64,000 nucleotides of DNA from an uncultured bacterium. Lineage in GTDB: Bacteria > Babelota > Babeliae > Babelales > Babelaceae. Positions 3,172 to 62,900 of the stretch are shown piece by piece. The notes beneath the pieces are model-generated. The model saw nothing but the letters and a program-made list of their open reading frames with translations. It was not told where the DNA came from and made no database searches. The DNA is taken from assembly GCA_963819815.1 (NCBI GenBank), contig CAWFXL010000001.1:448001-512000 (forward strand), given 5' to 3'. The position numbers and the translations under genes are program-made. Position 1 is the first letter of the stretch, and each line of letters opens with the position of its first letter.

Positions 3172-6100
3172 TCACACTGTTTTCTGTACTTTAAGCTTGA
3201 GATTCGCCTCCTCAATCTGCGAGGGGTTAAGGCTTTCTTGAGCGACAATCTTGAAGTGTTTAAATGCTTCTAGAAGATCTATTTCAATGGCTGGCGTGCC
3301 TTCATAATGCTGTCGTGCCAGCGAAAAATGAGCATCTATATGAGGAATGCCTAACACTTCGCCTATTGCAACTGCTTTTGCATCATATTCATGCACCTTT
3401 TCCCATTTCTTTCTCAGGAGCTGAGCTTTATCTTCAAGGACCTCCAACTTCTTTTGAGGAATGTTTTCATCCGATAGCTCATAGATACGTGCTATGTGGT
3501 AAGCGGCTTCAGATTGAACCCGTAAATTATATGGCTGATTAAGCGCTCTTTCATAACACGTAAGAGCTTGCAATGAGAGTATTTTTTTACTTGGAGATTC
3601 ACGAAATGCGATATGGCCAAGATAAAGCTCAGCCGCTGGACATATCCAGGAATTAGTGTTGGTGGCTCGTGCTTTTTTTAAATATTCTTTCGCTTGAGCA
3701 AGCGAGTCGACAGAGCTTGTATAGTGTAATTTCCCGAGCCTATAATAAGCTTCAGCTTTAAGTAGTTCATTTGAAGAGCGAGTAGCTTTTGAAAGAGCTA
3801 TTTCAAAACAGCTCATTGCCTTGGAGACCTTTTCTCTTGCAAGCAGGAAGCGACCTCGATAAAGCCAGGCTTGTGCACAATCTTGACTGGATGTTTCACA
3901 GGTATCTTCGCAAAGTCTCATGGCCTGTTCATAGAGGCTTACTACTGGTTCTGCTGTACTGTCTATTTTAAGGTCTTTACATTGAGCTCGATGCAAGAGA
4001 AACAGTGCGGCAATTCTACTTCTGAAACTAGCTTCCCCATCTATTTGGTTAACTTCTTCATCGTCTATATTGCTCACAATGAGATTTTGCTGATGAGCAA
4101 TAACCTGATTTAGATAGTATAGTGCATTCATCTGCGATTGTTTTACACCATATCCGTAAAAGTACATCTCACCTAACCGAGCACAAGCATAAGCCTGAAC
4201 AGCTTTGTCGACATCCTGTTTACTCGATATTTCAAAGAATTTGCAAGCCATTGCCGGATTCCACTCTACACCTCTCCCTAGGAAACACATTTCTCCTAAT
4301 ACGTGTGCTGCTAGAGCTTTATAGATTTTGGTTTCAGACAATTTGTATAAACCCTGAAAGTTTCGATATGCCTCCTCATACTTACCTTGCATATAAAAAC
4401 TAGCTGCTGATTTATACAATGTATGGGCGATATGCTCTCCTGTTTGAGTAAGCTTTAGAGAGCTTTTCCAAGTATTTTCAGGAGAAGTCTCAATACCGGT
4501 TTGATCTAATTTTCCTGCAAGAGCTTTCTGAGAAATCACATCAAATGGGCAAGAGGCTGCTTCTACCTCACGTGAACGATCCTTGCTAGCCGATGAATTT
4601 TTTACTGTAGATTCAGACGAGGTACTTGTATCTTCAGATGAGGTACTTGTAGAGGCAAGGGGACTTTCAGCTCGTGGGGTCACTAAGACTATTTCAGATG
4701 CATCATGTTCGGTCACTCTTGGAGTATCTAATTCATCTTGAACAACAAATTCTACTATCTGAGAACCGGAGCTGCTCTGTTGACCACTTGATAAATGCTC
4801 ATCCTGAGAAATTCCTGTGTCGGCATGAGAATGAGAGGTCTGTGTTGTTATGCTCACGCTTGGAGATTCCGACCCCTGAGACATACGGTCATTAGGTAGT
4901 GAAATACTTAACTCTGGGGATGGCTCTTGTTGAGCAACAGGTTGCGCCTGATCTCCTGAATGCTCATTCTGAGCAATTCCTGTGTCGGTACGAGGATGAG
5001 ACGTCTGTGTTCTGCTCACGGCTGGAGATTCCGTCTCCTGAGACACACGGTCATTAGGTAGTGGAATACTTAACTCTGGGGATGGTTCTTGTTGAGCAAC
5101 AGGTTGCGCTTGATCTCCTGAATGCTCATCCTGAGCAATTCCTACATCGGCCCGAGAATGAGAGGTCTGTGTTGTGCTCACGGCTGGAGATTCCGTCTCC
5201 TGAGACATACGGTCATTAGGTAGTGGAATACTTAACTCTGTGGATGGCTCTTGTTGAGCAACACGTTGCGCTTGATCTCCTGAATGCTCATCCTGAGCAA
5301 TTCCTACGTCGGCCCGAGAATGAGAGGTCTGTGTTGTGCTCACGGCTGGAGATTCCGTCTCCTGAGACATATCCTTATCGGGCAACGCAATACTTAACTC
5401 TGTGGATGGCTCTTGTTTACGGACACGAGGAGACGCTGTACGCCTAGTGCCTCTTGGTGATGAGTAAGTCTCTTGCAAAACGCTCGTTTCAACGTGTGTA
5501 CCAGAAGCACCTAACACTCGTCTTTTTGGAGATATCATTCTCTCCTGAGGCATACTAAGTAGCTCACTTTGCGACGGCTCTTGTTTACGGACACGTGGAG
5601 ATGCTATACGCCTAGTGCCTCTAGGTGATGCGTAAGTCTCTTGAGAGACGCCACTTGCGGCTTGCGCACCAGAAGTAGCAACCACTCTTCTTTTTGGAGA
5701 TTTCATCCGGTCTTGGAGCATACTAGGTAGCTCACTTTGTGGCGGCTCTTGTCTTTGCGAACGTGGAGACGCTGTTTGCAGAGTACTTCTCGGTGATGAG
5801 TGCTTCTCGTAAGAGATGCCAGTTATAACTTGTGCACCAGAGGTATGAGACCTTCTTCTCCTTGGAGAGCTAACTGAAGAATCGTATGATACCACGCTTG
5901 TTTCAGGTCGATCAGATGTGGTGATTCTTCTATGATCAGACGAAGCACTTCGTACAAGTTTATCTGTGCTCTGCACGGGAGTTGTAGACTCAGATGTGCT
6001 ACGTGTCCGAACGTTTAGATGTGGGGAGAATGGTCGGTTATCTTCCCAGGCTTTTCTAAAATCTGGAAATGCTGCAAACATAAGCTCCCGAAATGTTTCA

Positions 6101-7869
6101 TTGCACTCCTCAAAAATTCTACGAAGGTGATATGCCGTAGCCAGTTCACCTAGATCGGGATTCTCCTGTCTAAGCCGATTAATGAGGTACTGGATGCATA
6201 GAGCTTGCTCAAGAGGCATGCTTGATGAAATAAAATCTGATACTTCTTGATTGCCCATATGCCATACTTTTATCAAGCCATCAGGGCCGGTGCCCAGAAA
6301 AGCTGCTCCCTGACTACTTAAATAGGCTCCCTGCAACGCGAGTGAAGGGGGTAACGGTAACTTTTGGTAACTTTCACCTCGAACATCAGAGCGTGCCATT
6401 CCAGGGGCACCGCCATCAACAACTATTGCTGAACTCATTTTTCTCGTTGGCAGGAAAGCAAGGTTATCTATAAACTCATTACTAGAAGTATCACAAAAAA
6501 TCTTTACCGTACCCTTTTTAAGCTCGGTAAGCTGTTCATGAGGAATAATATCATAGGACAACACAGGAATATTGCCCTCGGTAATAGGTTCTACGGTATC
6601 TTGTTGGCAGTTCCAGACCCGTATTTCGTGGGTATCTGAAATAGTAACAAACTTTGAACCATTTGTGTAAAAGCCTCGATAGCCTGCTCCTGAATTCTTT
6701 TTATATGCTATAAACTTCTCTTTCTCCCATTCGTAAAACAGAAGATCCCCTCCAGGGCGTACTTCAATGATCAACTGATCATCATTTCCAAAAACAATGG
6801 TTGAATGATTGTTTTTCTTGTTATCCCTTTTATATGCTGGAGGAGCTAAGACTGTTTTCGTCTCTATTTGCGACGCTTCGGATTGACCTTTTCGAATGCT
6901 CAGTACGATGATTTTTTCGTCAAGTACCAATGCTAAATGTCTTCGGTCAGTACTGAGAGCTGTTCCCCAAATTCTTTTACTATCTTTATAGAGGTCTTTC
7001 CATGCAGGCGGAGTCGTATTGGAAAGACCAAATGAATCCCAAAGGTCGACACGTTTTTTCCCCCAGGTTATGATTCGGTTACCATCACAGAAGTGGACCC
7101 CTTTTATTTTGTAATCGAGCACTACATAGTATACTGAGTCACCACTTTTAAGATCAAAAACCTCAATAAAGCTGGTATCCTTTTTTTGAAGACCTGCAAT
7201 AACCACATGATGGCTATCGGGACTTACAGAACAGTATAGGAGCGGTTTGTCATTTTTTAGGGTGACACATAATTGGGCCCTTAAAAACTCTTGATCTTCG
7301 TCTTCTAGAAGCTTTACAGGAGATTGGGTAAGCTCAGGAGGCAACTCAAGCTCTGAAACCAGCCGTGCATTCGATACAAACGCGGCAAGTGAAGTTTCTT
7401 TTTTCAAGAGAAATAAAAATCCTGCAAGAGCAATAGGTTTCAACTTTTCAAGCCGCATGATCCGTATAAGGCTAAAGAGCTCACTCAATTCCTTAACTTT
7501 AACAGGAAGCGCTGCTGCACTGCGGTCGCCTTCTGAAATTTTGCTCATGAGACTTTTTTTAAGTTTTCCGTTTTTCCGTTTTTCGTTTTTAAGTTGAAGA
7601 AGGTAATCATTTAACATCTCGAGTTGATCACTGTTTAAAGGGACCTTAATAGGCATATCTTCTGTGGTTCCTAGTGCTGCATTTTGCTGTAACAGTGCTC
7701 CTATGTACTGTGACTCCTGAGCCCAGATAGCATCAAGCTGAAATGGCTTATCATCTGCGCTTACCGCAAAAAGATTGGTGTTTGTCGTACAAAGATCTTG
7801 TATCGCGACCGCTCCCTGTAAGGTTGCTCCAAAAGAAATGCATAGAAAAAAATAATGCCGCAAACTCAT
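3172..7869 (-). CDS. Large secreted multidomain protein: BTB/Skp1-like, divergent WD40-like propeller, Ser/Thr/Gln-rich tandem repeats, Sel1-like repeats
   Basis: 1565 aa; signal peptide; VSADDKPFQL..IKVPL; WD-like strands (VDLWD, IRVWN, IKVWH); C-terminal LGEMCFLGRGV and LGEMYFYGYGV Sel1 motifs; paralogous to 32896..36258. Confidence 0.85.
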   Translation of the reverse strand: MSLRHYFFLCISFGATLQGAVAIQDLCTTNTNLFAVSADDKPFQLDAIWAQESQYIGALLQQNAALGTTEDMPIKVPLNSDQLEMLNDYLLQLKNEKRKNGKLKKSLMSKISEGDRSAAALPVKVKELSELFSLIRIMRLEKLKPIALAGFLFLLKKETSLAAFVSNARLVSELELPPELTQSPVKLLEDEDQEFLRAQLCVTLKNDKPLLYCSVSPDSHHVVIAGLQKKDTSFIEVFDLKSGDSVYYVVLDYKIKGVHFCDGNRIITWGKKRVDLWDSFGLSNTTPPAWKDLYKDSKRIWGTALSTDRRHLALVLDEKIIVLSIRKGQSEASQIETKTVLAPPAYKRDNKKNNHSTIVFGNDDQLIIEVRPGGDLLFYEWEKEKFIAYKKNSGAGYRGFYTNGSKFVTISDTHEIRVWNCQQDTVEPITEGNIPVLSYDIIPHEQLTELKKGTVKIFCDTSSNEFIDNLAFLPTRKMSSAIVVDGGAPGMARSDVRGESYQKLPLPPSLALQGAYLSSQGAAFLGTGPDGLIKVWHMGNQEVSDFISSSMPLEQALCIQYLINRLRQENPDLGELATAYHLRRIFEECNETFRELMFAAFPDFRKAWEDNRPFSPHLNVRTRSTSESTTPVQSTDKLVRSASSDHRRITTSDRPETSVVSYDSSVSSPRRRRSHTSGAQVITGISYEKHSSPRSTLQTASPRSQRQEPPQSELPSMLQDRMKSPKRRVVATSGAQAASGVSQETYASPRGTRRIASPRVRKQEPSQSELLSMPQERMISPKRRVLGASGTHVETSVLQETYSSPRGTRRTASPRVRKQEPSTELSIALPDKDMSQETESPAVSTTQTSHSRADVGIAQDEHSGDQAQRVAQQEPSTELSIPLPNDRMSQETESPAVSTTQTSHSRADVGIAQDEHSGDQAQPVAQQEPSPELSIPLPNDRVSQETESPAVSRTQTSHPRTDTGIAQNEHSGDQAQPVAQQEPSPELSISLPNDRMSQGSESPSVSITTQTSHSHADTGISQDEHLSSGQQSSSGSQIVEFVVQDELDTPRVTEHDASEIVLVTPRAESPLASTSTSSEDTSTSSESTVKNSSASKDRSREVEAASCPFDVISQKALAGKLDQTGIETSPENTWKSSLKLTQTGEHIAHTLYKSAASFYMQGKYEEAYRNFQGLYKLSETKIYKALAAHVLGEMCFLGRGVEWNPAMACKFFEISSKQDVDKAVQAYACARLGEMYFYGYGVKQSQMNALYYLNQVIAHQQNLIVSNIDDEEVNQIDGEASFRSRIAALFLLHRAQCKDLKIDSTAEPVVSLYEQAMRLCEDTCETSSQDCAQAWLYRGRFLLAREKVSKAMSCFEIALSKATRSSNELLKAEAYYRLGKLHYTSSVDSLAQAKEYLKKARATNTNSWICPAAELYLGHIAFRESPSKKILSLQALTCYERALNQPYNLRVQSEAAYHIARIYELSDENIPQKKLEVLEDKAQLLRKKWEKVHEYDAKAVAIGEVLGIPHIDAHFSLARQHYEGTPAIEIDLLEAFKHFKIVAQESLNPSQIEEANLKLKVQKTV
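4795..5417 (-). repeat. Intragenic tandem repeat, 162 bp (54 aa) unit, about 4 copies
   Basis: CTTAACTCTG recurs at 4907, 5069, 5231 and 5393 (162 bp period); unit QEPSTELSIPLPNDRMSQETESPAVSTTQTSHSRADVGIAQDEHSGDQAQPVAQ. Confidence 0.92.
5408..5875 (-). repeat. Intragenic tandem repeat, 168 bp (56 aa) unit, about 3 copies, rich in SP-basic motifs
   Basis: GGCTCTTGT recurs at 5408, 5576 and 5744; unit contains SPKRR, SPRGTRR and SPRVRK. Confidence 0.88.
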
Positions 7870-8052
7870 AGAAGGCTCCTTTACGTTACTGAGGAAATAA
7901 CCTAACTGCTACAGTATCAAGGAATTTGCAAGGCATCAAATTTTAGTCTACTAGCAAAAAGAAATCTCTTTCAGCACACTGCAACAAAACTGCCACTGTA
8001 TTGAGGGCTAGAGCAATCGAAACTGGGATGTTTTGAGCTCCATGACGATCTT

Positions 8053-8231
8053 GATCGAGTATGGATGTGTGCTCTGTGTAGAAGCACTCATGATAGAGAC
8101 TATAATGCTGCGAAAAATATCGAACGAGTTGGGGCACCAACTCTTGGGTTAGGTGATGTAAGACCAACTTTGTTGGCTATCGCTGTCTGATTCCAAAATC
8201 CCCGGAATGTATTCCTGGGCGAGTATGTCAA
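8053..8231 (+). mobile_element. tnpB: IS200/IS605-family remnant: TnpB C-terminus plus right end (omega-RNA region), copy 1
   Basis: 8053..8190 reads DRVWMCALCRSTHDRDYNAAKNIERVG...AV*, matching the TnpB zinc finger/RuvC-III motif DRDxNAAxNI. Followed by hairpin CCCGGAATGTATTCCTGGG and terminal GAGTATGTCAA. Confidence 0.9.
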
Positions 8232-8461
8232 TTGGCAAAACTCTCGAGCTCTCTGAGAGACAAAATATGGCTCAAACAATATTTTTTAGAGGTTCTCATA
8301 GCTCGCAACCATTCTTTGCAGCCCAGATGAAAGCCTTCACAATCTTGAATGATCGATGCATATTCAAATGAAACTTGCCATAAGAACACTTCGAATATCT
8401 AATTCCTATAGCTTTATCCAAAACCAGACTGTCAGTTGCAGGCTATATGTAACTTTCCCAA

Positions 8462-11086
8462 TTATGCGTCTTTCATTCTTTTATGACCTTGAGGAGAAGA
8501 TACCTGAGTATGCTCTTTAAGAGTCTTGTAACGCTCCAAGCAACGATTGAAAGCCTCATCTATCCCTTGTGTGACAAGAGCCTTAATTTTGTTTTTCCAT
8601 TCAGCAGAAGCTATATAGAGGCCCAAATCCTCATCTTCTATCTGTGGTCTCCATAAAGACGATATCGATCTGAGTAAATCAGGAAGAAGCGCATCACCTA
8701 TCGTTGTGCAGAGAAATTCAATAGCATGAGGCTTTATTGAAGTGAGCAGAAGTGTAATTTCATAAGGGAGTAAGTCGGCTTTATTCCGCACGTAGATAAG
8801 AGAAAATAACGCATCGAGATGCTCTGTATTCAATATGCTCAAAAACAGATGTATCAAATGATCTCTTAGATGGGGTGTATGACTAAAAATCTCATCAATA
8901 CAGAGCACGGGTATCTCTATTGATCTGAAAAGTTTTGTGATATACATGACATGCTTGTAAGCTGCTCTTTGCTGTATGCAACTTTGCTTGCAAAATCGGT
9001 AAGAACGAAACGCGATATATTCGAGATTTTCCGGGATATCATATATTTCTTCTCTTTCAATCGCTCCTTCAAGAGTTACGATAATCATGTTTCTAAGTCC
9101 TCTTGCTCCTGCAAAAGAGGGTTCTGCTCCTGCTTCTAAAAGGCAACCAATGCTCTCAGTTCTGCCTACGTTAGCCGCTTCTTCGAGTTCCGTCCCCATC
9201 TTGATGGTTCGGGATGAATTACCTCTACTCCCGCCGGTCCATAAAGTTCTTAATATTCTACTGGGCCTTACCCCGTGCTTAAGAAGCTGGGCTATACAAT
9301 GGTCACACCATACTGCAGTTCCTAACAAGCTGCGGTCGTCCTCATCCGAGAAAACAGAAGCTCCCGCCTTAAGTAACCGATCTACAAGGTCGCATAATCC
9401 TCCATCTAGTGCTCTAGAAAGGGGTGAACGAACCAAAGGCGAGAATCGCTCGACATAGGCTCCATGCTCAACAAGGAGATTCGCAAGCTCCACATGATTG
9501 GAATTGGGGTCATATAATAGCCCACTTAATATTGAGTCCTGGACCCCCTCGAATACCAATACGGCGCTTGGATTTGCTCCCGCAAGAATAAGCTTTTTAG
9601 CTGCATCGATGGGGGCACCTCTCTCTTTAAAAGCTCTTAAAACCGCATCAAGCAAGGCCTCTTCATCCGGATATGCTCCTGAATTGAGAAGCAGATCGAA
9701 GCATTCTTCATGTCTATTTGCTAAGGCAGCTGCAAGAGGAGTATATGACGGCGGACTTTGATCGCTTGGAATTGAGGCTCGGGGAAGATATTCGTTCGGA
9801 TTCGCTCCAACTTCTAATAATCGTTTTACTATTCCCACATGACCCGCTTTGCTTGCTTCATAAAGTGCTCTTGTAAGAAAGAAATCTTGGGGTCTTCTCA
9901 CCAGAGACAAAAATATTTCTAACCATTCGCCATCACCATTTTTTACCATGCCTTCCCATAATTCTGGTACGATACAGCGAATACCTAAGGCAAGAAGTCG
10001 TCGAAATAGTACTTTATCATTAGTTTGTATTACGAAGTGTAACCATCTTTGAAGGTCTGGAGTATTGTGGGATATGAGTCCCTGAGCCGCCAGTAACTCA
10101 ACTAACTCAATATTATGGTCGGCAATCGCATAATCCCAGGTCCTAACACCCCGGACTATCGCGCAACATTCAAGCCATAGGAGTGCGCGTTCATTATCAC
10201 CTTGTTGTTGATAATATTCCATGTAAGTATGCATACGTTTAAGGAGCGTGGGATCTCTATCTACATGGCGCGACAAGAGATATTTCGCACAGTGAGGCTT
10301 TTCCAAATAAATAGCGAGATTCACGGGCTTATTTCCCAAATACACGTCAGACGGAGCATCCAAAAATACTTCCGGAACGATTTCTCCGAGCATAGAGTCG
10401 TCGTCGTTTTGAAGGGCATCGAGAACTTTGAGTTCCATAGGTGCGGCCTGATAACAACGGACCCAACTAAACGCTTCTTGATAGTCTTCTTTTTGCCAAG
10501 ATTCTTGTGCATATATCTTAATTTTTGCCTCGAAGGAAGGCATTCTTTTCGCTCCATGAGATAAGAGCGTCTTGACACAGCGAACGCTCTTGAACAAAAG
10601 CGCAAGCTCCAGGGGTGTTTGCCCAAGATACGTTTCAAGTCGAGTATCAAGTTGCTCCTTGGGGATAGTATTTTCAAGCTCTGCATGAGCGTCATTTTCA
10701 AGCGCATTAAGGATCTTAAGTTCTCTTTCAGTCGCGGAACGACAAAGAGCCCACAAGATAGCCTGGTCTGGTTGTCGTTCCGCCAAGCAATGCTGCATAT
10801 GAGCTAGTATTTCTTGATCGGTAGAGGGATTTTTTAATGCACCACGCTTTATGAGCGATCTTACACAGTGCGGACTGCGTAAAAAAAGAGAAAACTCCAG
10901 AGGTGTTTTTCCCATGAGTAGCTCGAATCGAGTATTTACATAATAATCAGGAACAAGTCGGCTCAGTTCACTGGGGTTATCATTTTCGATAGCTCGCATA
11001 ACGCTCGCGGAAACTACAGCCATATGCAAAGGATAGATCCAGAAGGAAGACAAAGTAAATATCGCTATAAGGAAGATTTTTTTCAT
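8462..11086 (-). CDS. Secreted ankyrin repeat protein with shared family C-terminal domain
   Basis: Start moved to MKKIFLI at 11086 (GGAG upstream, signal peptide); ankyrin motifs; C-terminus aligns by eye with 12786, 25528, 27773 and 38356. Confidence 0.9.
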   Translation of the reverse strand: MKKIFLIAIFTLSSFWIYPLHMAVVSASVMRAIENDNPSELSRLVPDYYVNTRFELLMGKTPLEFSLFLRSPHCVRSLIKRGALKNPSTDQEILAHMQHCLAERQPDQAILWALCRSATERELKILNALENDAHAELENTIPKEQLDTRLETYLGQTPLELALLFKSVRCVKTLLSHGAKRMPSFEAKIKIYAQESWQKEDYQEAFSWVRCYQAAPMELKVLDALQNDDDSMLGEIVPEVFLDAPSDVYLGNKPVNLAIYLEKPHCAKYLLSRHVDRDPTLLKRMHTYMEYYQQQGDNERALLWLECCAIVRGVRTWDYAIADHNIELVELLAAQGLISHNTPDLQRWLHFVIQTNDKVLFRRLLALGIRCIVPELWEGMVKNGDGEWLEIFLSLVRRPQDFFLTRALYEASKAGHVGIVKRLLEVGANPNEYLPRASIPSDQSPPSYTPLAAALANRHEECFDLLLNSGAYPDEEALLDAVLRAFKERGAPIDAAKKLILAGANPSAVLVFEGVQDSILSGLLYDPNSNHVELANLLVEHGAYVERFSPLVRSPLSRALDGGLCDLVDRLLKAGASVFSDEDDRSLLGTAVWCDHCIAQLLKHGVRPSRILRTLWTGGSRGNSSRTIKMGTELEEAANVGRTESIGCLLEAGAEPSFAGARGLRNMIIVTLEGAIEREEIYDIPENLEYIAFRSYRFCKQSCIQQRAAYKHVMYITKLFRSIEIPVLCIDEIFSHTPHLRDHLIHLFLSILNTEHLDALFSLIYVRNKADLLPYEITLLLTSIKPHAIEFLCTTIGDALLPDLLRSISSLWRPQIEDEDLGLYIASAEWKNKIKALVTQGIDEAFNRCLERYKTLKEHTQVSSPQGHKRMKDA

Positions 11087-50811: not shown

Positions 50812-51021
50812 ATGAATGCCATGCTCGTCTTAGGTGTATCTATGAACTCAGGTCGCAAACAAAGAAAGCCCGTGATGCAGCAGATCATACATCCCATACA
50901 ACGGAGCACTCGCGCGTGCCATCAGTGTGGAAAAGCAGACGCTCCTAAAATGTGCTCTCGCTGTAACGCAGTATATTATTGTAACGCCGAGTACCAAAGA
51001 CAAAAATGGTCTTCCCATTAA
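50812..51021 (+). pseudogene. Degenerate MYND zinc finger fragment
   Basis: CHQCGKADAPKMCSRCNAVYYCNAEYQRQKWSSH*; one ligand Cys replaced by Tyr and a stop before the last Cys. Confidence 0.75.
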
Positions 51022-51306
51022 AAAATTGCCATTCAAAATAACTTGTCATTAAACCTATAGTTTGGGCGATGCACATAGCGCGTATTTAGATGCAGTCAAA
51101 ATACGTGACATACCATTCCAGGAGCAGTTCAAGAGAACAGTAGTGCTCGTAAGAATGTCATAGCAACTCCATAATTAGTATACAAGTATTTCGCATAGAT
51201 CTCCCTGTGTCAGGACTTTCAATTCATCGGGGCTCACGAGCAACTTTTAACAGGCTGGCCGAACAAGAACGTCCTGATGGTGGTACCCAAAATATTGCAT
51301 ACGGAG

Positions 51307-51458
51307 TTGACATACTCGCCCAGGAATACATTCCGGGGATTCTGGGATCAGACAGCGATAGCCAACAAAGTTGGTCTTATATCGCCTAACCCAAGAGTTA
51401 ATGCCCTAACTCGTTCGATATTTTTCGCAGCATTATAGTCTCTATCATGAGTGGTTCT
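51307..51458 (-). mobile_element. tnpB: IS200/IS605-family remnant: TnpB C-terminus plus right end (omega-RNA region), copy 2
   Basis: Reverse complement matches 8080..8231 with 8 differences in 152 nt; encodes THDRDYNAAKNI; ends GAGTATGTCAA. Confidence 0.9.
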
Positions 51459-51577
51459 AAGTAGATACATCACTCAGTACAAAGGCGAGGCTGTTCTGGC
51501 ACTATTTTGATTATTAAAAACTGTTACAGTTCACATGTGGTAGTATCAGCAAATGAGATACAGGCAAGAGTTGTTAG

Positions 51578-51612
51578 AAGATAGTACCTCGATGATCTCG
51601 AGATACTATCTT
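51578..51612. repeat. 15-bp inverted repeat (hairpin)
   Basis: AAGATAGTACCTCGA-tgatc-TCGAGATACTATCTT, one mismatch. Confidence 0.7.
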
Positions 51613-51659
51613 GAGCTTCTCATCCCCATACATACATTTAGGGGCCTTCCCGGCACAGA

Positions 51660-51820
51660 GGGTAATATTCTTATGCAGTTTTCGTTACCCTCAGTAGCAA
51701 GATGCAATGGTGTGCTCCCTCTAAATTTATCACTTCCAAGTACCTGGACATCAAAGAATTCTCCCGTGTCGATGAAATATTGGATGAGAGCGGCATGCCC
51801 AATTTTGCCAACATACTGAT
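51660..51820 (-). pseudogene. Ankyrin repeat gene fragment
   Basis: A frame not in the ORF track reads KIGHAALIQYFIDTGEFFDV..DKFRGSTPLHLATEGNENCIRIL, with in-frame stops upstream. Confidence 0.6.
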
Positions 51821-51944: not shown

Positions 51945-54900
51945 TTAAGAAACCAGTTCTTGTCCAATTTTAGCGAGCAAGAAGCTAACAAGACCGCTTA
52001 TAGATGGATCTAAATAAGCGATAAATGTTCTACCGCTTTGGTCTTGAATCCGTGTATTAGCACCTTTTTCTATCAGGAGCGTCACGATGGACAGTAGCCC
52101 ATGCTTCGCTGCAAGAATTAACGCAGTTTCTCCTGCGCTATTTTGAAGATCAAGGTTGGCCTTGTGTGAAAGAAAGAGCCTTGTTAACTCCTCGTTTTTA
52201 TGAGCTATCGCTTTCATAAGAACCGTCCTGCCCTCAGCATCTTGCGTATTTATGTCCGCCCCTATTTCAAGGAGCTGCGCTATAACCGCTGTACCTTGCA
52301 ATAAAGCACAATGCAGAACAGTCATTCCATTAATACGTCTATTAACATTAAGATAGGGTATGTAGCCTAATTGAAGTGAAATCACTTCCACGGAAGGTGC
52401 AGGAACCTGAATATCAGGAGCTTGTACCCCTATATGTTCAGGTGCAAGTACGATCGATGACGTTTGTGCCACTGAAGCAGGAGTTGGCGTTGCTTGTGAA
52501 TGCTTTTCTTGAGCGCGGCGTAAAATCTGTACGGAGTAGAAATGGCCTTTTCGTTGAGCTTCCTCTAAAGGTGTTTCTTGAACATTATTTTTCATACTCA
52601 GTAACAATGGATAGTGGTCCGTTATCCACTCAATAATTTCAACATGAGCAGCTTTGTTAGCAGGAAAATCGCGAGCAGCCATATGCAATACAGTATCTCC
52701 GTTAGTATCCTTCACGTAGATGAGCTGTTCGCATCCTTGTGCTTTGCATCTGTTGATTAAGTTGTGCAATATATTCAGTCGGCTAGCTGCCATATGCAAT
52801 ATCGTAGATCCAGAATCATTTACGAGTGTCGTAAGTTCTGGATAGGATTCTTGCAGCCAATCGATCATCGGCTCATCTACATTAAGCACCGCTACGTGCA
52901 ATATTGTGTATCCCGTAGAATAGCGACAATGTACAAGTTCTGGATAGGCACCTGCCAGATATTTCGCTAATTCGATATGTTTACCCGCGACAGCAGCAAC
53001 AAGTATTGACTGTCGGAAGTTATTTACCTTCTGTACAAAATGCGGATAGTTCTCAATCAACCACTTTACCATTGGTAGATGACCATATCTGGCAGCCATA
53101 TGGCATACAGTATCACCAGAAAAGGGGAGCATATCAAGGAGATCGGGATAATTTTTTAAGAGCCACTGGACCAACTCCGAATGATTTTTTTGCGCTGCTT
53201 CATAGAGTATTGTCTCATTATACTGGGATAGCCACTTATGAGACGCTCCTTGTCTTAACAGATTTTGTACTGCTAATACATCTCCGTTTCTGGCCGCGTC
53301 AAATAGATCCTGTTTTAATTGAGCTTCTCGAGGTGCATCCAGGTTATTTTCTGCTTGGCAAGCTTGAGGAGTAGAATGTTTTTGAGTCGGTGGCACTATA
53401 ATCACATCGCTACTATCTGTTGAGTCATCATCTTCTTGGATAACAATTGTTCTCCGTTCTGAAAGCATTGTAGATCTTGAATTATCTACATCCGATTCAT
53501 TGGCTTTTACAACAGGTTTGTCTGAAGAAGATGGTGCACCGCTTGGCACAACAGCCGTTGGCGTCTGTCTACTTGTAGGAGTACCTGCTGCATGAGGAGG
53601 AGAGACCTCTCGTCCAGCAGATGGCAATGATTGTGAGGAAACACTCTTGTGCGGCAAAAGCCCTTGTTCCCGCTTTTTTACTAAATCTCGAATTAAATCC
53701 GCTAAAAAAGGAGCTGCATCAAAAACTGTTTCGCCCTTATTATTAGTAGCTGTTACATCCGCACCTCTTTCTATCAGCTCTTTTACAATCGCCACATTAC
53801 TGTTTCGCGCAGCTACATGTAAAGGTGTATTGCCATAACGATTTTTCGAATTAACGGGAGCTCCTTGATCCAATAGAGCAATAATCGTACCTGTATTACG
53901 ATTCCTCAGTGCTTTAAAGAATTCTCCATGCACTCCTGCAACCGAATTACCATTGGGACTTTCCACTGGCTTTTCAGATTGTTCTTTTTCATCCTGTTCG
54001 TTCGTCATTCGAGCTCTTTTTTCCGGAGTCGACTCACCAGAAGGAGTTCTTTTTTTTGTCGAATTATTCTTAGTATTTTCGTCAGATCCTGTGGAAATAG
54101 CTGCTTTCGGTGTAGAACCATTTTGTACAGAAATCGCTGCGTCCCGTTCTTTGGCATATTCACGAATAATGCGTTCGACTTCAGGATGAACTTTATCAAA
54201 AATTGTTTTACCTCTTTTATTCACGGCCCGTATATCTGCACCTCTTTTTATTAATTCTTTGACAACCGTCATATTGGTTGGTGTGGCCCTTCGCGCAGCA
54301 GCATGTAACAGAGTATTACCGTAACGATTTTTCATATTTACTGGTACACCTTGTTTGAGTATCGCTAATGCTTTTTGAGTATTTCCATTATAGATGTCTT
54401 TATGGACGTCTTTAAACAGCTTACTTTGGAGCGTGGAATCATCTTTTTCAATAACAATATTTTCCTCTCCGGCAGTTGCTGTGGAATCATCTTCAATAAC
54501 AATATTGTCGTCTGCGACAGTTGCTACTGAATTATCTCCAGATTGCTCAGGAACTTCCTCAGTAGGATTACTTACTACACCAGCCACCTGAACGGCCTTC
54601 TGCTTCTCAAGAGCTTGCTTTTGTTTTCCTACTAACTGAGAAATTAATTCAGCCACTTCAGGACGTGCCCCTTCGAAAACTGATCGACCTTTGTAATTAA
54701 AGTCAAAAACGTCAGCTCCTCTTTTTATAAGCTCATCTACGATTGTCATATCATTTTTTGTTGCGTTTCTCATAGCCACGTGCAGAGGCGTATCTCCACT
54801 ACGATTTTTCGCAGTTACTGGCACGCCCTGCTCTAGTAAATCAAATACTTTTCTACTGTTTCCTTGAGTGATATACCTAAATAATTCTTCTTCAAGAGAA

Positions 54901-55758: not shown

Positions 55759-58700
55759 TTATGATCGTTGGGCTAAGATTGCAATTACCAGTCCTTGTAT
55801 TGATGGATCTAAATAAGTGATATACATATTGCCTCGCTTGTCTCGCATCGCTGTATCCGCGCCTTTTCCAATAAGGAGCGTAACAAGAGATAAAGAACCA
55901 CCCTTTGCAGCAATAATTAATGCTGTTTCACCTACATTATTTTGCATATTTACGTTGGCATTTTTGCTCAGTAATAGCTGTATGAGTTCCTCATTCTTAT
56001 TTTCTACCGCTTGCATAAGAACAGTCTTGCCTTCACCATCCTGGGCATTAATATCAGCGCCCAGTGCAAGTAGCTTAAGTACAACGGCACTGCCTTGCAA
56101 TAATCCATGATGAAGCACAGTTTTGCCACCAATGTGTTTATTTACGTCAATAAAATCTACCCATTCAGGCTTATGTATCGTAACGCTCGCGGTTTGAGCC
56201 GGAGTAGCTTTCATAGTTTGTGAAGAAACATTCTCGACAGGAACTGATGTAGCTGGAGTCTGTGTCCTCGCTGTAGAAGCTATAGTACTTTTTATAGGTT
56301 GCGCCGGGAGCTGCGACATCTGTACTGGCGCCGAGTTAGGTTTCGGCATGTACGTAAATGTGCTTATGATAGGCCGAAATGGGGTTTGCGTAGCTACTAC
56401 TGCTGAAGTTCTTACAGGTTGCTGCTGAGATTGAGGCATTTGAATCATTGGCATATACCATGGCCAAGTTGTTGCAGGTTGAGATGCAAAAGATCTCACA
56501 ACTTGCTGTTGAAGCTGCGGATCAAGCGTCCCTGATGGAACTAAAGAAGGCCTTACGACAGGTTGTGATACAGCTTGTGTCCCTACCACCGCTGAAGTCC
56601 TCACAGGTTGCTGTTGGAACTGATACAAAGATTGTACGAGCATCATGCCAGGCACTGAACTCGGTTGTACTGTGTGATGAGGTACATTCGTAGCTGCTTT
56701 AGCTGCAGTTTGTGTCGCCGCAGAGCTTGTAGCAGCATTCGCGGACGGCTGTTGAGCAGGCTGCACGTTCGAAAGTTGCGGAGCACCTTGCTGGCAAAGA
56801 GCCGCTACCATATCCTGTTTATTATTTCCAATAGCTTCTTCTAACGGTGTTTTGTGCGCTTTGTTTTTTATAGTGAGTAGTCGCGGGTAATTGGTTGCTA
56901 ACCATGAGGCAACTGACGGTTTTCCCTTTAATACTGCAGCATGAAGACAGGTGTGACCCTCATTATCTTCGACATACAGTAATGATGGACATTCTTGCAC
57001 AAGATAATCTATAATGCGCCTTCCTTTTCTTATTGCTCCTGTATGTAATATGGTGGCACCCTGAGCAGTCACCAAGATTTTGAGGTCCGGATATTCTTCT
57101 ATAAGCCATTTTACCATGTCAGGATTTTTGCCTAGCGTCGCCGTATGCAGCACTGTGAGATTATTGCTGGCTAAAGACCTTACTAACTGAGGATAATTGC
57201 GTGCCAAATATTGCGCTATATCTAACCGTTCTTTCAATACGGCGGTGTGAAGGACAGACGCACTCATTGGGCTTAGTTTGTGAAAAAGTTCGGGACAGTG
57301 CTGTTCAAACCATTTCAGGAGATCAAAATGACCATGCATGACTGCAGTGTGCAAAGCGGTACCATCCACTGAAAGTCTATCTTTCAAATCTGGATACTTA
57401 CTTAAAAGCCACTGAACTACCTGTGTATGATTATGTGCTGTCGCTATATGTAATATTGTTTGCTGTTTCTCATCTACTGCTGTATGGGGCGCTCCGTCTT
57501 TCAAAATCCTTTGCAGATCAGATAGGTTACCCTTTTGGGCCGCGGTAAAAAGTAACTCTTCGTGCACTGTTCGAGGAGATGCACTCACGGTTTGTACAGG
57601 TGGAGTCGGTATCTGATCGGGTGAAACAGTTGAATTTTGGGAGGTTCCCGTCTGCACTACTTGAGTAGACATCTGATTTTTCTTTGCTGCAGAACCCTTT
57701 TTAACCTGCTCCGTTCTTAAACTTACTGTTTGGGTAGGTGGAAAAGGCCATACTGGTGTGGGTACGTTTGAAGCATTTTGCACAGTCGGCTGTGCCGGGT
57801 CTGCTTTTTGTCTGCTCTGAGAAGTTACAGTATTCTGCGCGGACAGAGGCAAACTAGTTCCTGCCTGCACAGCATTATGCTGGGCAGGAGAGGTACGAGC
57901 CGTTTTATCTTTATCATGCCCTGTCTGTTGCGTATCTTTAGGAGCCACTTTATGCAGTTCATCAGTTGAAGATAGAGTTCTTTTGACACCTGATTGCCTT
58001 GTTACCGCAGAGCTCGTGGAAGCTGTAGAAACTGCTTTAACCGTCTTGGTTTGTTTATCTGCTACTGCTGGCTGATCTGCTTGGTTGGTTACTGCTGTAG
58101 ACAAGCCAGGATTACTTTTTTTACTAGCTAATTGTGGATATGTGGCAGTTAACCACTGCGCTATATCATTATTATTATTGCTCCGAGCAATATCCACGCA
58201 GGTCTGTCCCTTATTGTTTTTTATATCGATCAAAAACGGGATACAGTTTCTCGCGATGTATTGTACTATCTCTAACTTGCCTCCCTTTGATGCAGCAGTA
58301 TGGAGTACTGTCCATCCATCATTGGTTCGTAATTTTTGAAGTTGAGGATCATTCGTCATCAACCATTGGGCCATTTTAATATCCCCACTAATTGTTGCCT
58401 CATGTAGAGCGGTCCAGCCATGCAATTCGCGCTCACGTAGTATATGGGGAAATTGCTCTGCTAAAAATTTCGCAATCTCGAAATATCCACGTCTGACTGC
58501 AACTTGAAGAGCCGTTCTTCCTGTCATATCTTTCTTTGCCGCTAAATCCCAATAATGTGTTGCGAGCCATTGAACTATTTCTAAACGATTATTAAAAGCT
58601 GCTTCATGTAATACCGTTTGCCCTTTATCGCCAAGCACAGTGTGCAAAGTTCCTTGGTGAATGATATCCTGCACATCTTTTAAAGTACCCTTTCTAGCAG

Positions 58701-59909: not shown

Positions 59910-62900
59910 TCAATAAGGAGGAGGTCCACCAACGCCGCCAAAGGAAACATTGATATTATGCACCCGCGCAGATTTAGCTACCAATACGCCAATAAGAGGT
60001 CTTATAGATGGATCTAAATATGCTACAAAGGTCTTTTCGTTCTTATCTTGTATCCTTGTGTCAGCTCCATTTTCTATAAGGAATGCAACTAGAGGTAATA
60101 GCCCATTCTGCGCTGCCAAAATCAAAGCGGTTTGGCCTGCATTATTTTGAATATTAAGGCTTGCCCCTTGAGAAACAATCGATCGAACAAGTTCATCATT
60201 TCTATTTTCAATAGCTTTCATAAGAACTGTTTTGCCTTCATTATCTAGGGCATTTATATCAGCTCCCATTTCAAGAAACTGCTTTATAATCGCTGTACCC
60301 TGCAATAGTGTACAATGAAGAACCGTCAACCCATTAATACGTTTATGCACATCTACGAAATCAGCTAGCTCAGGCTGACGCGGGATTATTATATTTCTGG
60401 CCACATGTTCTTGTTGATTATTAACTGGCACGTTGGATCTATCTTCTATTGAGGTAGCTTTTTGCGATGCCTGCTTTGTAGAGGAGTTATTCGAACTGTC
60501 AAGAACTGTTTGTTCATGCCTTTTCTCAGCATCTTCTAATATTTGTATAATCGCTGGTTTATTAAGGCTTCGCGCCACATCCAATGGTGTCTCTTGCTTG
60601 TTATTTTTTATAGTGAGCAAGCGTGGATAGGTATGAGCAAGCCATTGAACAATTTCAAGCTTATTCGCAATTACTGCATTATAAAGACAGGTAAGACCAT
60701 CCTCGCTTTGTAATAAAACGGGGCATGATTGTGCTATGTGTTGAACTACCTCGAGGCTGCGCGCCGAAGCGACATGGAGTATGGAATGTTTTTTAATCGC
60801 CAGTAATGGTATAAGATCGGGAAAGCAGCGCATCAGCCATTTTACCATTTCAAGATTATCGCTACATATTGCGTTCATAAGTACAGACATATCCTTATTG
60901 CCTAATTTATTCGCAAGTTCTGGATGTTTTTGTAATACATATTTCACAATTTCAAAATGTCCTTTAAAGGCAGCAAGATGAAGTGCCGTGCTCCTACTTT
61001 TATCCGTCTTCATCAAAAGATCTGGAAACCGGAAGATTAACCATTTTACCAGTTCGATATGACCAAGTTGCGCGGCAACATGCGCTATTGTATAGCCCCG
61101 ATCATCAGTCATATCAACCAAATCAGGATATATTTCAAGCAACCATTGCACCATCCCTAAATGATTGTGCCGTGCAGCCACATGAGCTATGGTAGCACCC
61201 TTATCAGAGCGCCATTTTAATGATGCTCCTTGCATTAAAAGATCTATCAATTGTAGCCTATCACCTTTCTGCGCTACTGCAAAAAGATCACTTTTTAGCC
61301 GTTTTTCTTGACGCGAACTTTGATCACTTTCTTCCTGTGGCTGAACCGCCAATTGACTTTGCTCAGGCACCGAACTTTTTTGAGCTAGCGGCATGAGGGG
61401 TACTTCTATTAAACCGTCCTCTTGCACATTGGTATTCTGCCCCATAGGTAATGGCGGTCTCTGTACAGGCGAATGAGAAAGGTGAGCTGAATGTTGTATC
61501 TGTAGTTCGTGCTGGTTTCCCTCACCTATAGCTCGTGTCCTCGCAGGAGCTGATGTTTTTTGTGGTGCGCTTGTTTGAGATGATTGCCTCTTAAGAGGTG
61601 TAGGCGATGCGTCACTTTCTGAAGTATCATCTATGTACCGGTTTTTCACTAGTTCCCGCATTAACGTAGCCACTTCAGGATCAGCACAATCAAAAACTGT
61701 TTCGCCATGAACATTCACAGGGGAGGTATCAGCGCCCCTTTTTATAAGTTCAGAGACAATTAACATTTTACCTTTTTTTGCCCATCGCGCTGCTATATGT
61801 AAAGGCGTATTGCCGAGCTTATTTATCACATTAATAGGAGCCCCTTGATCCAATAAAGCAATCACTTTCAATGTACTCTTGCGAGAGATCTCATGAAACA
61901 ATCTTTCTTCGAGCGTACCATCGTTATCACCTTCTTTCTCATTATCGATAAAGGAACTGTCTGCAATGCTCTGTTCGCGTTCATCTTCTTCATCATCTAG
62001 TCGAGACCTTTTTTCAGGAGCAGATCGAAATGAACTCCTTCTTTTTTTAGCTGGCAGTCTAGTTTGATTTTTATCAGTACCATTATCTGCTATCTGCCCG
62101 GAATCTTTCTTTTTTGAGTGAGGAGCTACATGAGCAGCATCGCATACTAATTCTTTTTTACTATTCTGACTAACTTTAGCTGATGTTCTTTGTGGTGCAC
62201 TTGTTTGAGACGATTGCCTCGTAAGAAGTCTTGACGATGCCGCACCTTTTTTCGTATCATCTGAGTCCCGGTTTTTTACCAGTTCATGCATTAACGTAGC
62301 CACTTCAGAATCAGCGCAGTCAAAAACTGTTTCGCCATAATCATTCACAGGGGAGGTATCAGCACCCCTTTTTATAAGTTCAGACACAAGTACCATTCTA
62401 CCTTTTGTTGCCCATCGCGCTGCTAGATGTAAAGGGGTGTGGCCCAGTTTATTTATCGCGTTAACAGGAGCTCCTTCATCCAATAACGCAATCGTTTTCG
62501 GTGTATTCTTACGAGAAATCTCCCGGAACAATCTTTCTTCGAGCGTACCATCGTTATTAGCTTCTTTATTGATGAATGAACCACCTCTCGTGCTTTGTTG
62601 GCTTTCATCTTCTTCACCCTTTATTCGAGACCCTTTTTCAGGAGCAGATCGAAATGAGCTCTTTCTTTTTTTAACTGAAGGTGTAGTTTGATTTTTATCA
62701 ACTTCGTTAGTTGGAAGCTGCTGCATAGCAGCTATATTATTTTGCGTGGAAACATTGGCGTCCCGTTTTTTTTCCAGTTTATGTACTAAGCTAGACATTT
62801 CAGGATCCGCATTCACAAAAATCGTTTCGTTCTTATTATTCAACGCATAAATATCAGCGCCCCTCTTTATAAGTTCTCCTACGAGCCATTTTGTTTTTAT

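Follow-up and report, generated by a model that had tools for sequence, protein, structure and literature searches.

Two loci in the 64,000-nt stretch of DNA analyzed here (the window; G000:C1:448001-512000, part of a 1.64-Mb genome of two contigs and 42.7% G+C) share a 152-nt block, which a sequence-only reading had interpreted as a pair of orphan, stand-alone guide-RNA genes. Are these loci host genes, or are they what a mobile element has left behind? Ungapped pairwise alignment of 8080-8231 (+) with 51307-51458 (-) confirmed the block, with 8 mismatches and a terminal TCAA. The similarity ends just past TCAA: one more base is identical, then the flanks diverge, and the 3' flanks differ as originally quoted. 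With a probability of about 0.82, we favor the view that both loci, named A (end at window position 8231, +) and B (end at 51307, -), are leftovers of one non-autonomous, tnpB-only element of the IS200/IS605 family, most likely immobile relics and not host genes.

We found nine copies of the unit in the 1.64-Mb genome, with identities of 84-100% and E values of 1e-26 to 1e-85, thereby excluding a chance match. The chromosomal copies other than A and B were named c336, c365, c401, c412, c977, c1112 and c1402. The 152-nt unit is composed of the final 35 codons of tnpB and the stop codon (…HDRDYNAAKNIERVGAPTLGLGDVRPTLLAIAV, then stop), followed by a 41-nt right end. The stop codon is located 41 nt ahead of the TCAA end, and it is at TCAA that the copies cease to resemble each other. 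The unit is indeed, as initially recognized, the omega-RNA-encoding 3' end of tnpB together with the right end of an IS200/IS605-type element. In the ten-copy set, which consists of the nine genome copies and a miniature copy from a second species of the genus (G001), TCAA was found at the right end of nine copies and TTAA in the remaining one. Furthermore, TTAC is located directly 5' of the left end in 6/6 copies with a complete left end, the G001 miniature counted. The element ends behave as those of the IS200/IS605 family, with a fixed TTAC target on the 5' side and a TCAA cleavage motif at the right end. Regarding subterminal hairpins, 6 of the 7 pairs of the right-end hairpin (helix 5) were changed on both sides among 33 related ends described below; the left-end hairpin was recognized by visual inspection alone.

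The full-length element, c336, lies 112 kb upstream of the window (C1:335920-337311, ~1.39 kb) and is made up of a left end of ~200 nt, an open tnpB gene of 380 codons (C1:335960-337099) and a right end. Its product contains the Pfam domains OrfB_IS605 (PF01385, 82.5 bits) and Cas12f1-like_TNB (PF07282, 66.8 bits), matches the NCBIfam model guided_TnpB (NF040570, 'RNA-guided endonuclease TnpB family') with 248.5 bits, and aligns to the ISDra2 TnpB structure 8bf8 with an E value of 3.8e-41. The catalytic residues of ISDra2 TnpB are D191, E278 and D361. In the c336 protein, GIDFG, IEDFN and HDRDYNAAKNI align to the three RuvC catalytic motifs (D-E-D) of ISDra2. The sequence-only reading had left the cognate tnpB to be found and its RuvC residues to be verified; the genome encodes an intact 380-aa TnpB with aligned D-E-D motifs. 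Judged from these alignments, the c336 protein is predicted to be a bona fide TnpB and not a nuclease-dead variant; therefore, the proposal that a TldR-like protein is the partner of these loci fails.

A tblastn search of the genome revealed no second full copy of tnpB. The remaining tnpB-like matches were C-terminal remnants of the c336 family, together with a 74-aa piece of a different tnpB family. The only tnpB-like stretches in C1:448001-512000 are remnants A and B, in agreement with the earlier statement that the window holds no intact tnpB or tnpA. As for the 74-aa fragment of the different family, This last piece (G000:C1:532818-532985, ~21 kb past the window end) is open over 74 aa, shares 41-43% identity with the C-terminal part of TnpB and matches PF07282 with 50 bits. 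We also observed that a macro-domain-like ORF adjoins c336. Besides, the right-end hairpin of c336 (L010/L049) bears a 4-nt deletion (TTCC), and the sole live nuclease gene may therefore be the family member with the poorest RNA and the poorest transposon end.

Copy A is a 5'-truncated remnant of the tnpB-only IS200/IS605-family element, 203 nt long and devoid of a left end (window 8029-8231, +), as recognized by homology to full-length c336 (86% identity over 203-212 nt). It reaches 51 nt deeper into tnpB than the 152-nt block, and a 9-nt deletion is located upstream of the block. By tblastn, copy A covers residues 325-380 of TnpB with 82% identity. Frame translation and a PF07282 match of 29.7 bits delineate a tnpB C-terminal pseudogene fragment at 8029-8190 (+; …CALCRSTHDRDYNAAKNIERVGAPTLGLGDVRPTLLAIAV, stop codon at 8188-8190), the single-frame reading of which (…WMCALCRSTHDRDYNAAKNIERVGAPTLGLGDVRPTLLAIAV, then stop) covers the second zinc-ribbon CxxC and the RuvC-III motif of TnpB. 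The stop codon is followed by 41 non-coding bases, TCAA being the last. Further 3', the flank that would provide a 16-nt guide, TTGGCAAAACTCTCGA (8232-8247, +), has itself as its sole genome match with 0-1 mismatch. Since copy A lacks a left end, no Y1 transposase could excise it and its site would never be vacated; copy A appears to be a dead fragment.

Copy B has the features of a complete, gene-less miniature element (PATE/MITE) of 355 nt with a left end and a right end (51307-51661, -), as revealed by its two blocks of similarity to c336, positions 1337-1541 of B to the left end and positions 1548-1700 to the right end. The left end of B (51466-51661, -), delineated by alignment with c336, corresponds to the untranslated 5' region of the full element and stops ~10 nt short of the tnpB ATG. 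The right-end segment (51307-51459, -), delineated by alignment with A and the other copies and by pair counts, carries the last 35 tnpB codons and the stop, now non-coding, followed by the right end, and contains the entire omega-RNA scaffold (51412-51307). The deletion removed all sequence between a point ~10 nt ahead of the tnpB ATG and one ~160 nt short of the right end. A TTAC target motif, the TnpB TAM, is located directly 5' of the left end (51662-51665, -), as in all complete left ends, and the 3' flank (51291-51306, -) would provide the 16-nt guide CTCCGTATGCAATATT, which, like that of A, matches only itself in the genome (0-1 mismatch).

The internal junction of B is common to c365, c1112 and c401, each of these copies lying in a different flank. 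B and c365 (C1:365211-365569) share 95% identity over 359 nt. In c401, the left end adjoining the B-type junction is cut to 47 nt, and c1402 carries a derived form of the junction, in which another 62 nt are deleted and 116 nt of the right end remain. B therefore qualifies as a PATE/MITE, with both ends, no ORF and several copies bearing the same junction at different sites, and a related miniature copy is present in the second species, G001. Among the other copies, c412 is another truncated version of the full-length element and lacks 20 nt within the RNA region, and c977 is a right-end stub of 88 nt. The 5' limits of the copies other than B and its siblings vary (-203, ~-290 with the internal 20-nt deletion, -116 and -88); random truncation points of this kind had been named beforehand as evidence against guide-RNA genes. 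The 152-nt boundary is merely where the inherited deletion junction of B meets sequence that is also present in A, and does not represent an RNA 5' end that recurs independently.

Solo left-end fragments of ~109 nt with 81-83% identity were found at G000:C1:311310-311417 and G001:C4:29455-29564. As these pieces persist without a right end or an RNA, the RNA part of the element is not the only one to have been retained. We also noticed that G001 contigs C19 and C30 (L071) terminate in left ends with tnpB codons 1-28 (86-89% identity), and that C30 (~2.9 kb) is flanked by two inverted element copies. These observations suggest that the assembly of G001 was interrupted by several full-length copies, which were perhaps active more recently.

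The argument for guide-RNA genes had drawn on RNA structure: 7 of the 8 differences between A and B were said to fall in stems and to keep pairing. Measured against the covariation-supported structure described below, 6 of the 8 lie in stems, and all 6 keep a standard pair; of the other two, one (column 87 of alignment A2) belongs to an internal loop and one (column 13) to the 5' part, which is unstructured. Copy B does carry the compensatory change of G-C to A-U (columns 60/67). Across the ten genus copies, 97.9% of the cells pair in the hand-drawn structure, with one pair changed on both sides (in B), eight one-sided changes that keep the pair and six pair-breaking cells. Where the copies differ at paired positions, most substitutions are transitions, about half of which keep the pair through G-U by simple reasoning. 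Covariation among the ten copies was not significant, as 65 of 500 shuffles did as well, and the compensatory signal within the genus is suggestive at most. Single-sequence folds were unremarkable (z-scores of -1.96 for the A locus and -1.40 for the B locus). RNAalifold run on the ten copies returned another nesting, in which the loop and stem of hairpin 1 are paired to the 3' tail, with no covariation; we read the loop-tail pairing as a candidate pseudoknot.

Covariation did emerge outside the genus. A protein-based scan identified the closest relatives of c336 TnpB in the genome collection, 26 tnpB loci of cyanobacteria and Firmicutes with 43-54% identity. A covariance model built from the ten copies was then searched against 25 of these loci (L046 was left out) and 11 loci from the same bacterial family that belong to other tnpB families. 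It yielded 33 matches, including the 3' ends of 24 of the 25 loci with 32 to 109 bits; L042 had no match to the model. Nearly all the matched 3' ends finish with …GAGUAUGUCAA. In these 33 related right ends, 27 of the 32 pairs were changed on both sides and 92.8% of the cells pair, and none of 500 shuffles reached the observed values. The covariation score was 0.443 versus at most 0.081 for slid-partner controls, in an alignment fitted to the model and thus favoring the structure. Our results show that the omega-RNA fold is real and that the fold drawn by hand in the sequence-only reading is essentially the conserved fold of the family.

The scaffold of A was placed at 8126-8231 (+) by its fold and pair counts. 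It consists of hairpin 1 (8126-8143), a long bipartite hairpin (8144-8196), the right-end hairpin (8200-8219) and a 3' tail ending in TCAA. The loop GGCA (8133-8136) can pair with UGUC (8226-8229). In the 33 right ends, this pairing is possible and nearly invariant, with two compensatory changes in a single sequence (L038). The scaffold of ~106 nt (A, 8126-8231; B, 51412-51307) is predicted to be complete and structurally intact in both copies, and, candidate pseudoknot included, it is intact in A, B, c365, c401, c1112 and c1402. Rfam returned no match at the gathering score across the whole window, and chance-level matches only at E values up to 10 over 7950-8300. Furthermore, the right ends of L023-L048 share with the c336-family element a near-invariant …GAGUAUGUCAA tail and a GGGGCAU hairpin loop. 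These loci and the c336 family form one omega-RNA class that is without an Rfam match here. The 41-nt right-end core had no exact match in metagenome_contigs.

A real fold leaves the question of whether the host has put these RNAs to use. The loci could be host-domesticated guide-RNA genes that steer TnpB or a TldR-like protein to targets in the host, phages or plasmids, for regulation or defense. The scaffolds are intact and pairing is kept in A and B, and both loci are intergenic and lie amid 'effector-like' genes for ankyrin-repeat, Sel1/TPR, Skp1-POZ/BTB and MYND-finger proteins, which is circumstantial evidence of such a role. However, the sole close TnpB has intact RuvC motifs, all other matches being remnants and the 74-aa fragment of another family. 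The TATAAT motif reported inside the shared block is present at 8101-8106, but it is the Tyr-Asn codon pair of HDRDYNAAKNI, a RuvC motif, and has no -35 partner in either copy. A scan limited to sigma-70-like sites detected none in or beside either unit on the relevant strand, the single such site in 7850-8480 lying downstream, at 8336-8364.

A TnpB omega-RNA would take its guide from the 3' flank, and a search for TAM-adjacent targets of these flanks had been suggested. We observed that the nine 16-nt guides match, with 0-1 mismatch, only their own flanks, after TGTCAA and not after TTAC, and that no match with 2-3 mismatches follows TTAC anywhere in the genome, the 39.5-kb second contig included. 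The 20-nt flanks of A and B had no match in viral_contigs, by exact matching that mismatched targets would escape. Each guide is simply the sequence adjoining an insertion. The 5' boundaries were either inherited or arose at random, and relatives have no conserved counterparts of the loci. We consequently regard domestication as highly improbable. The claim of stand-alone guide-RNA genes is not supported, given the two ends of B, the variable 5' limits, the left-end-only fragments, the coding TATAAT and the self-only guides, and that of a nuclease-dead TldR-like partner fails on the intact RuvC motifs and the lack of a TAM-adjacent host target.

No Y1_Tnp (PF01797) match was found in the genome, an assembly 88% complete in 2 contigs from which tnpA could be missed; Y1_Tnp is present in 6 of the 9 other genomes of the genus. 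TnpA is likely absent from the genome, which concerns the present mobility of the element and not its identity. Without a TnpA, no donor-joint target should arise today, and the copies are therefore most likely immobile relics. No empty or orthologous site for the flanks of A and B was found in the 9 other genomes of the genus.

How these relics arose can be proposed as follows. A tnpB-only element of ~1.39 kb would have inserted 3' of TTAC and ended at TCAA. One ancestral deletion in tnpB would have produced the 355-nt miniature derivative, later copied to several TTAC sites. The 152 nt would owe their conservation to the machinery of the element that they hold, namely the C-terminal RuvC-III codons of tnpB, the scaffold of the omega-RNA and, in the right end, the hairpin and the cleavage site TCAA. 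In the active period of the family, every right end presumably gave rise to an omega-RNA with its own 3' flank as guide, and TnpB, acting in trans for the miniatures, would have cut the TTAC-plus-flank 'donor joint' after excision, so that recombination restored the element.

In the five copies that have both ends, 16 of 112 columns are variable in the right-end segment versus 39 of 148 in the left end (Fisher p ~0.02, an approximate test as the copies are related). Conserved right ends, an open tnpB and helices that are all kept in most right ends fit selection during spread, since TnpB would have retained only those miniatures whose omega-RNA worked; no host function is needed to account for them. 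A tnpB gene open over 380 codons despite a copy divergence of 5-15% hints at recent activity or selection. Neutral insertion-sequence debris, which the sequence-only reading had offered as the simpler alternative, comes close to the truth, but purely neutral decay after insertion would not predict the slower change of the right end, which fits selection during spread or some present use.

One such use would be selfish. The modules could still be active, with the intact TnpB loading the omega-RNAs of the miniatures, and perhaps of A, in trans. The complexes would cut TTAC-plus-flank alleles that are empty, either in sister chromosomes where excision has on rare occasions occurred or in co-infecting strains without the insertion, thereby driving the insertions and linked effector genes through the population. 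This possibility extends our preferred reading and does not exclude it. The open TnpB frame with aligned D-E-D motifs, the six intact scaffolds and the lower variability of the right end all speak for it. Moreover, trans use of the omega-RNAs of PATEs is proposed in the available part of PMC10055086, and the 116-nt scaffold sufficient for ISDra2, as given in the accessible text of PMC10097598, would fit within these copies. Conversely, no TnpA was found that could make donor joints, no sigma-70-like promoter was found at either locus, and none of the 9 genus genomes has an empty site or an orthologous flank. The c336 right-end hairpin is also 4 nt short, and fragment A, without a left end, occupies a site that could never be vacated. 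Present selfish activity is thus possible though doubtful. Still more speculative, and in our estimation a long shot, is a version in which a nuclease-competent TnpB with a damaged hairpin of its own, in a genome with no TnpA match, depends on the roughly six intact modules for multi-guide cutting of empty alleles in co-infecting strains within the host cell. If true, such a multi-guide system would amount to a gene drive for the insertions and the neighboring effector-like genes, and would explain both the open tnpB and the slower evolution of the right-end/RNA segment, at about half the rate of the left end.

Immobile relics, the reading we prefer, can be compared with known systems. The TnpB shares its domain set with that of the Deinococcus radiodurans element ISDra2, to whose solved structure it aligns (E 3.8e-41), and, again as in ISDra2, the RNA overlaps the tnpB 3' end and stops at the right-end boundary. 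Unlike ISDra2, the element has no Rfam family, no TnpA was found here, and the closest TnpB relatives share 43-54% identity. It also differs in its TTAC target and TCAA right end, a pair that we take to be the IS608 pattern. The target motif of ISDra2 is TTGAT, according to the available part of PMC10097598. The same portion of that source describes an omega-RNA with a pseudoknot and a 116-nt scaffold sufficient for cleavage; here, the scaffold is of comparable size, ~106 nt, and has several stems and a candidate pseudoknot between the 5' loop and the pre-guide region.

PATEs, noted in Geobacillus stearothermophilus, 'often encode omega-RNAs' that need TnpB in trans, as stated in the accessible text of the preprint by Meers et al. 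(PMC10055086). B and its siblings likewise have both ends, no ORF, several copies and a retained omega-RNA region. The host here is an intracellular-type bacterium with a small genome (1.64 Mb), but the architecture of the elements is no different; with only one TnpB and no TnpA found, the family looks stranded. Like TldR systems, these loci have a TnpB-derived guide-RNA scaffold beside a fixed guide. However, the TnpB keeps its three RuvC motifs, the guides have neither a promoter nor another TAM-adjacent target, and the loci are transposon ends and not a conserved host operon. In the available portion of the TldR preprint (10.64898/2026.09.22.753285), 'orphan' is applied to oppA genes only, and in that of the IStron preprint (10.1101/2023.11.20.567912), PATE is mentioned in a figure legend only.

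The two loci are an ordinary, already described kind of transposon remnant, and two unannotated repeats of an effector-rich region are thereby explained as transposon debris. The analysis also defines an uncatalogued IS200/IS605 element, with TTAC as TAM, a TCAA right end and a ~106-nt scaffold, along with its miniature derivative. Furthermore, the covariance model could help annotate tnpB loci of cyanobacteria and Firmicutes. The literature has already noted that gene-less elements can keep a complete omega-RNA, and the miniatures are one more natural case.

The surroundings of the two loci yielded a few observations of their own. MYND fingers are mainly a eukaryotic domain. A 69-aa ORF at window 50812-51021 (+), 286 nt from the right end of B, encodes a MYND zinc finger that ends at profile position 35 of 39 and may be truncated. 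On the side of A, the 1565-aa ORF at 3172-7869 (-) has a Sel1/TPR C-terminal part, and its translation shows, in the middle, several nearly identical units of ~50 residues repeated in tandem (…QEPSTELSIPLPNDRMSQETESPAVSTTQTSHSRADVGIAQDEHSGDQAQ…). Finally, the 3' part (51970-52300) of the 1255-aa ankyrin gene beside B is paralogous to 55798-56099 and 59973-60304, with 69-71% identity, which points to a local family of ankyrin-repeat genes in the window.
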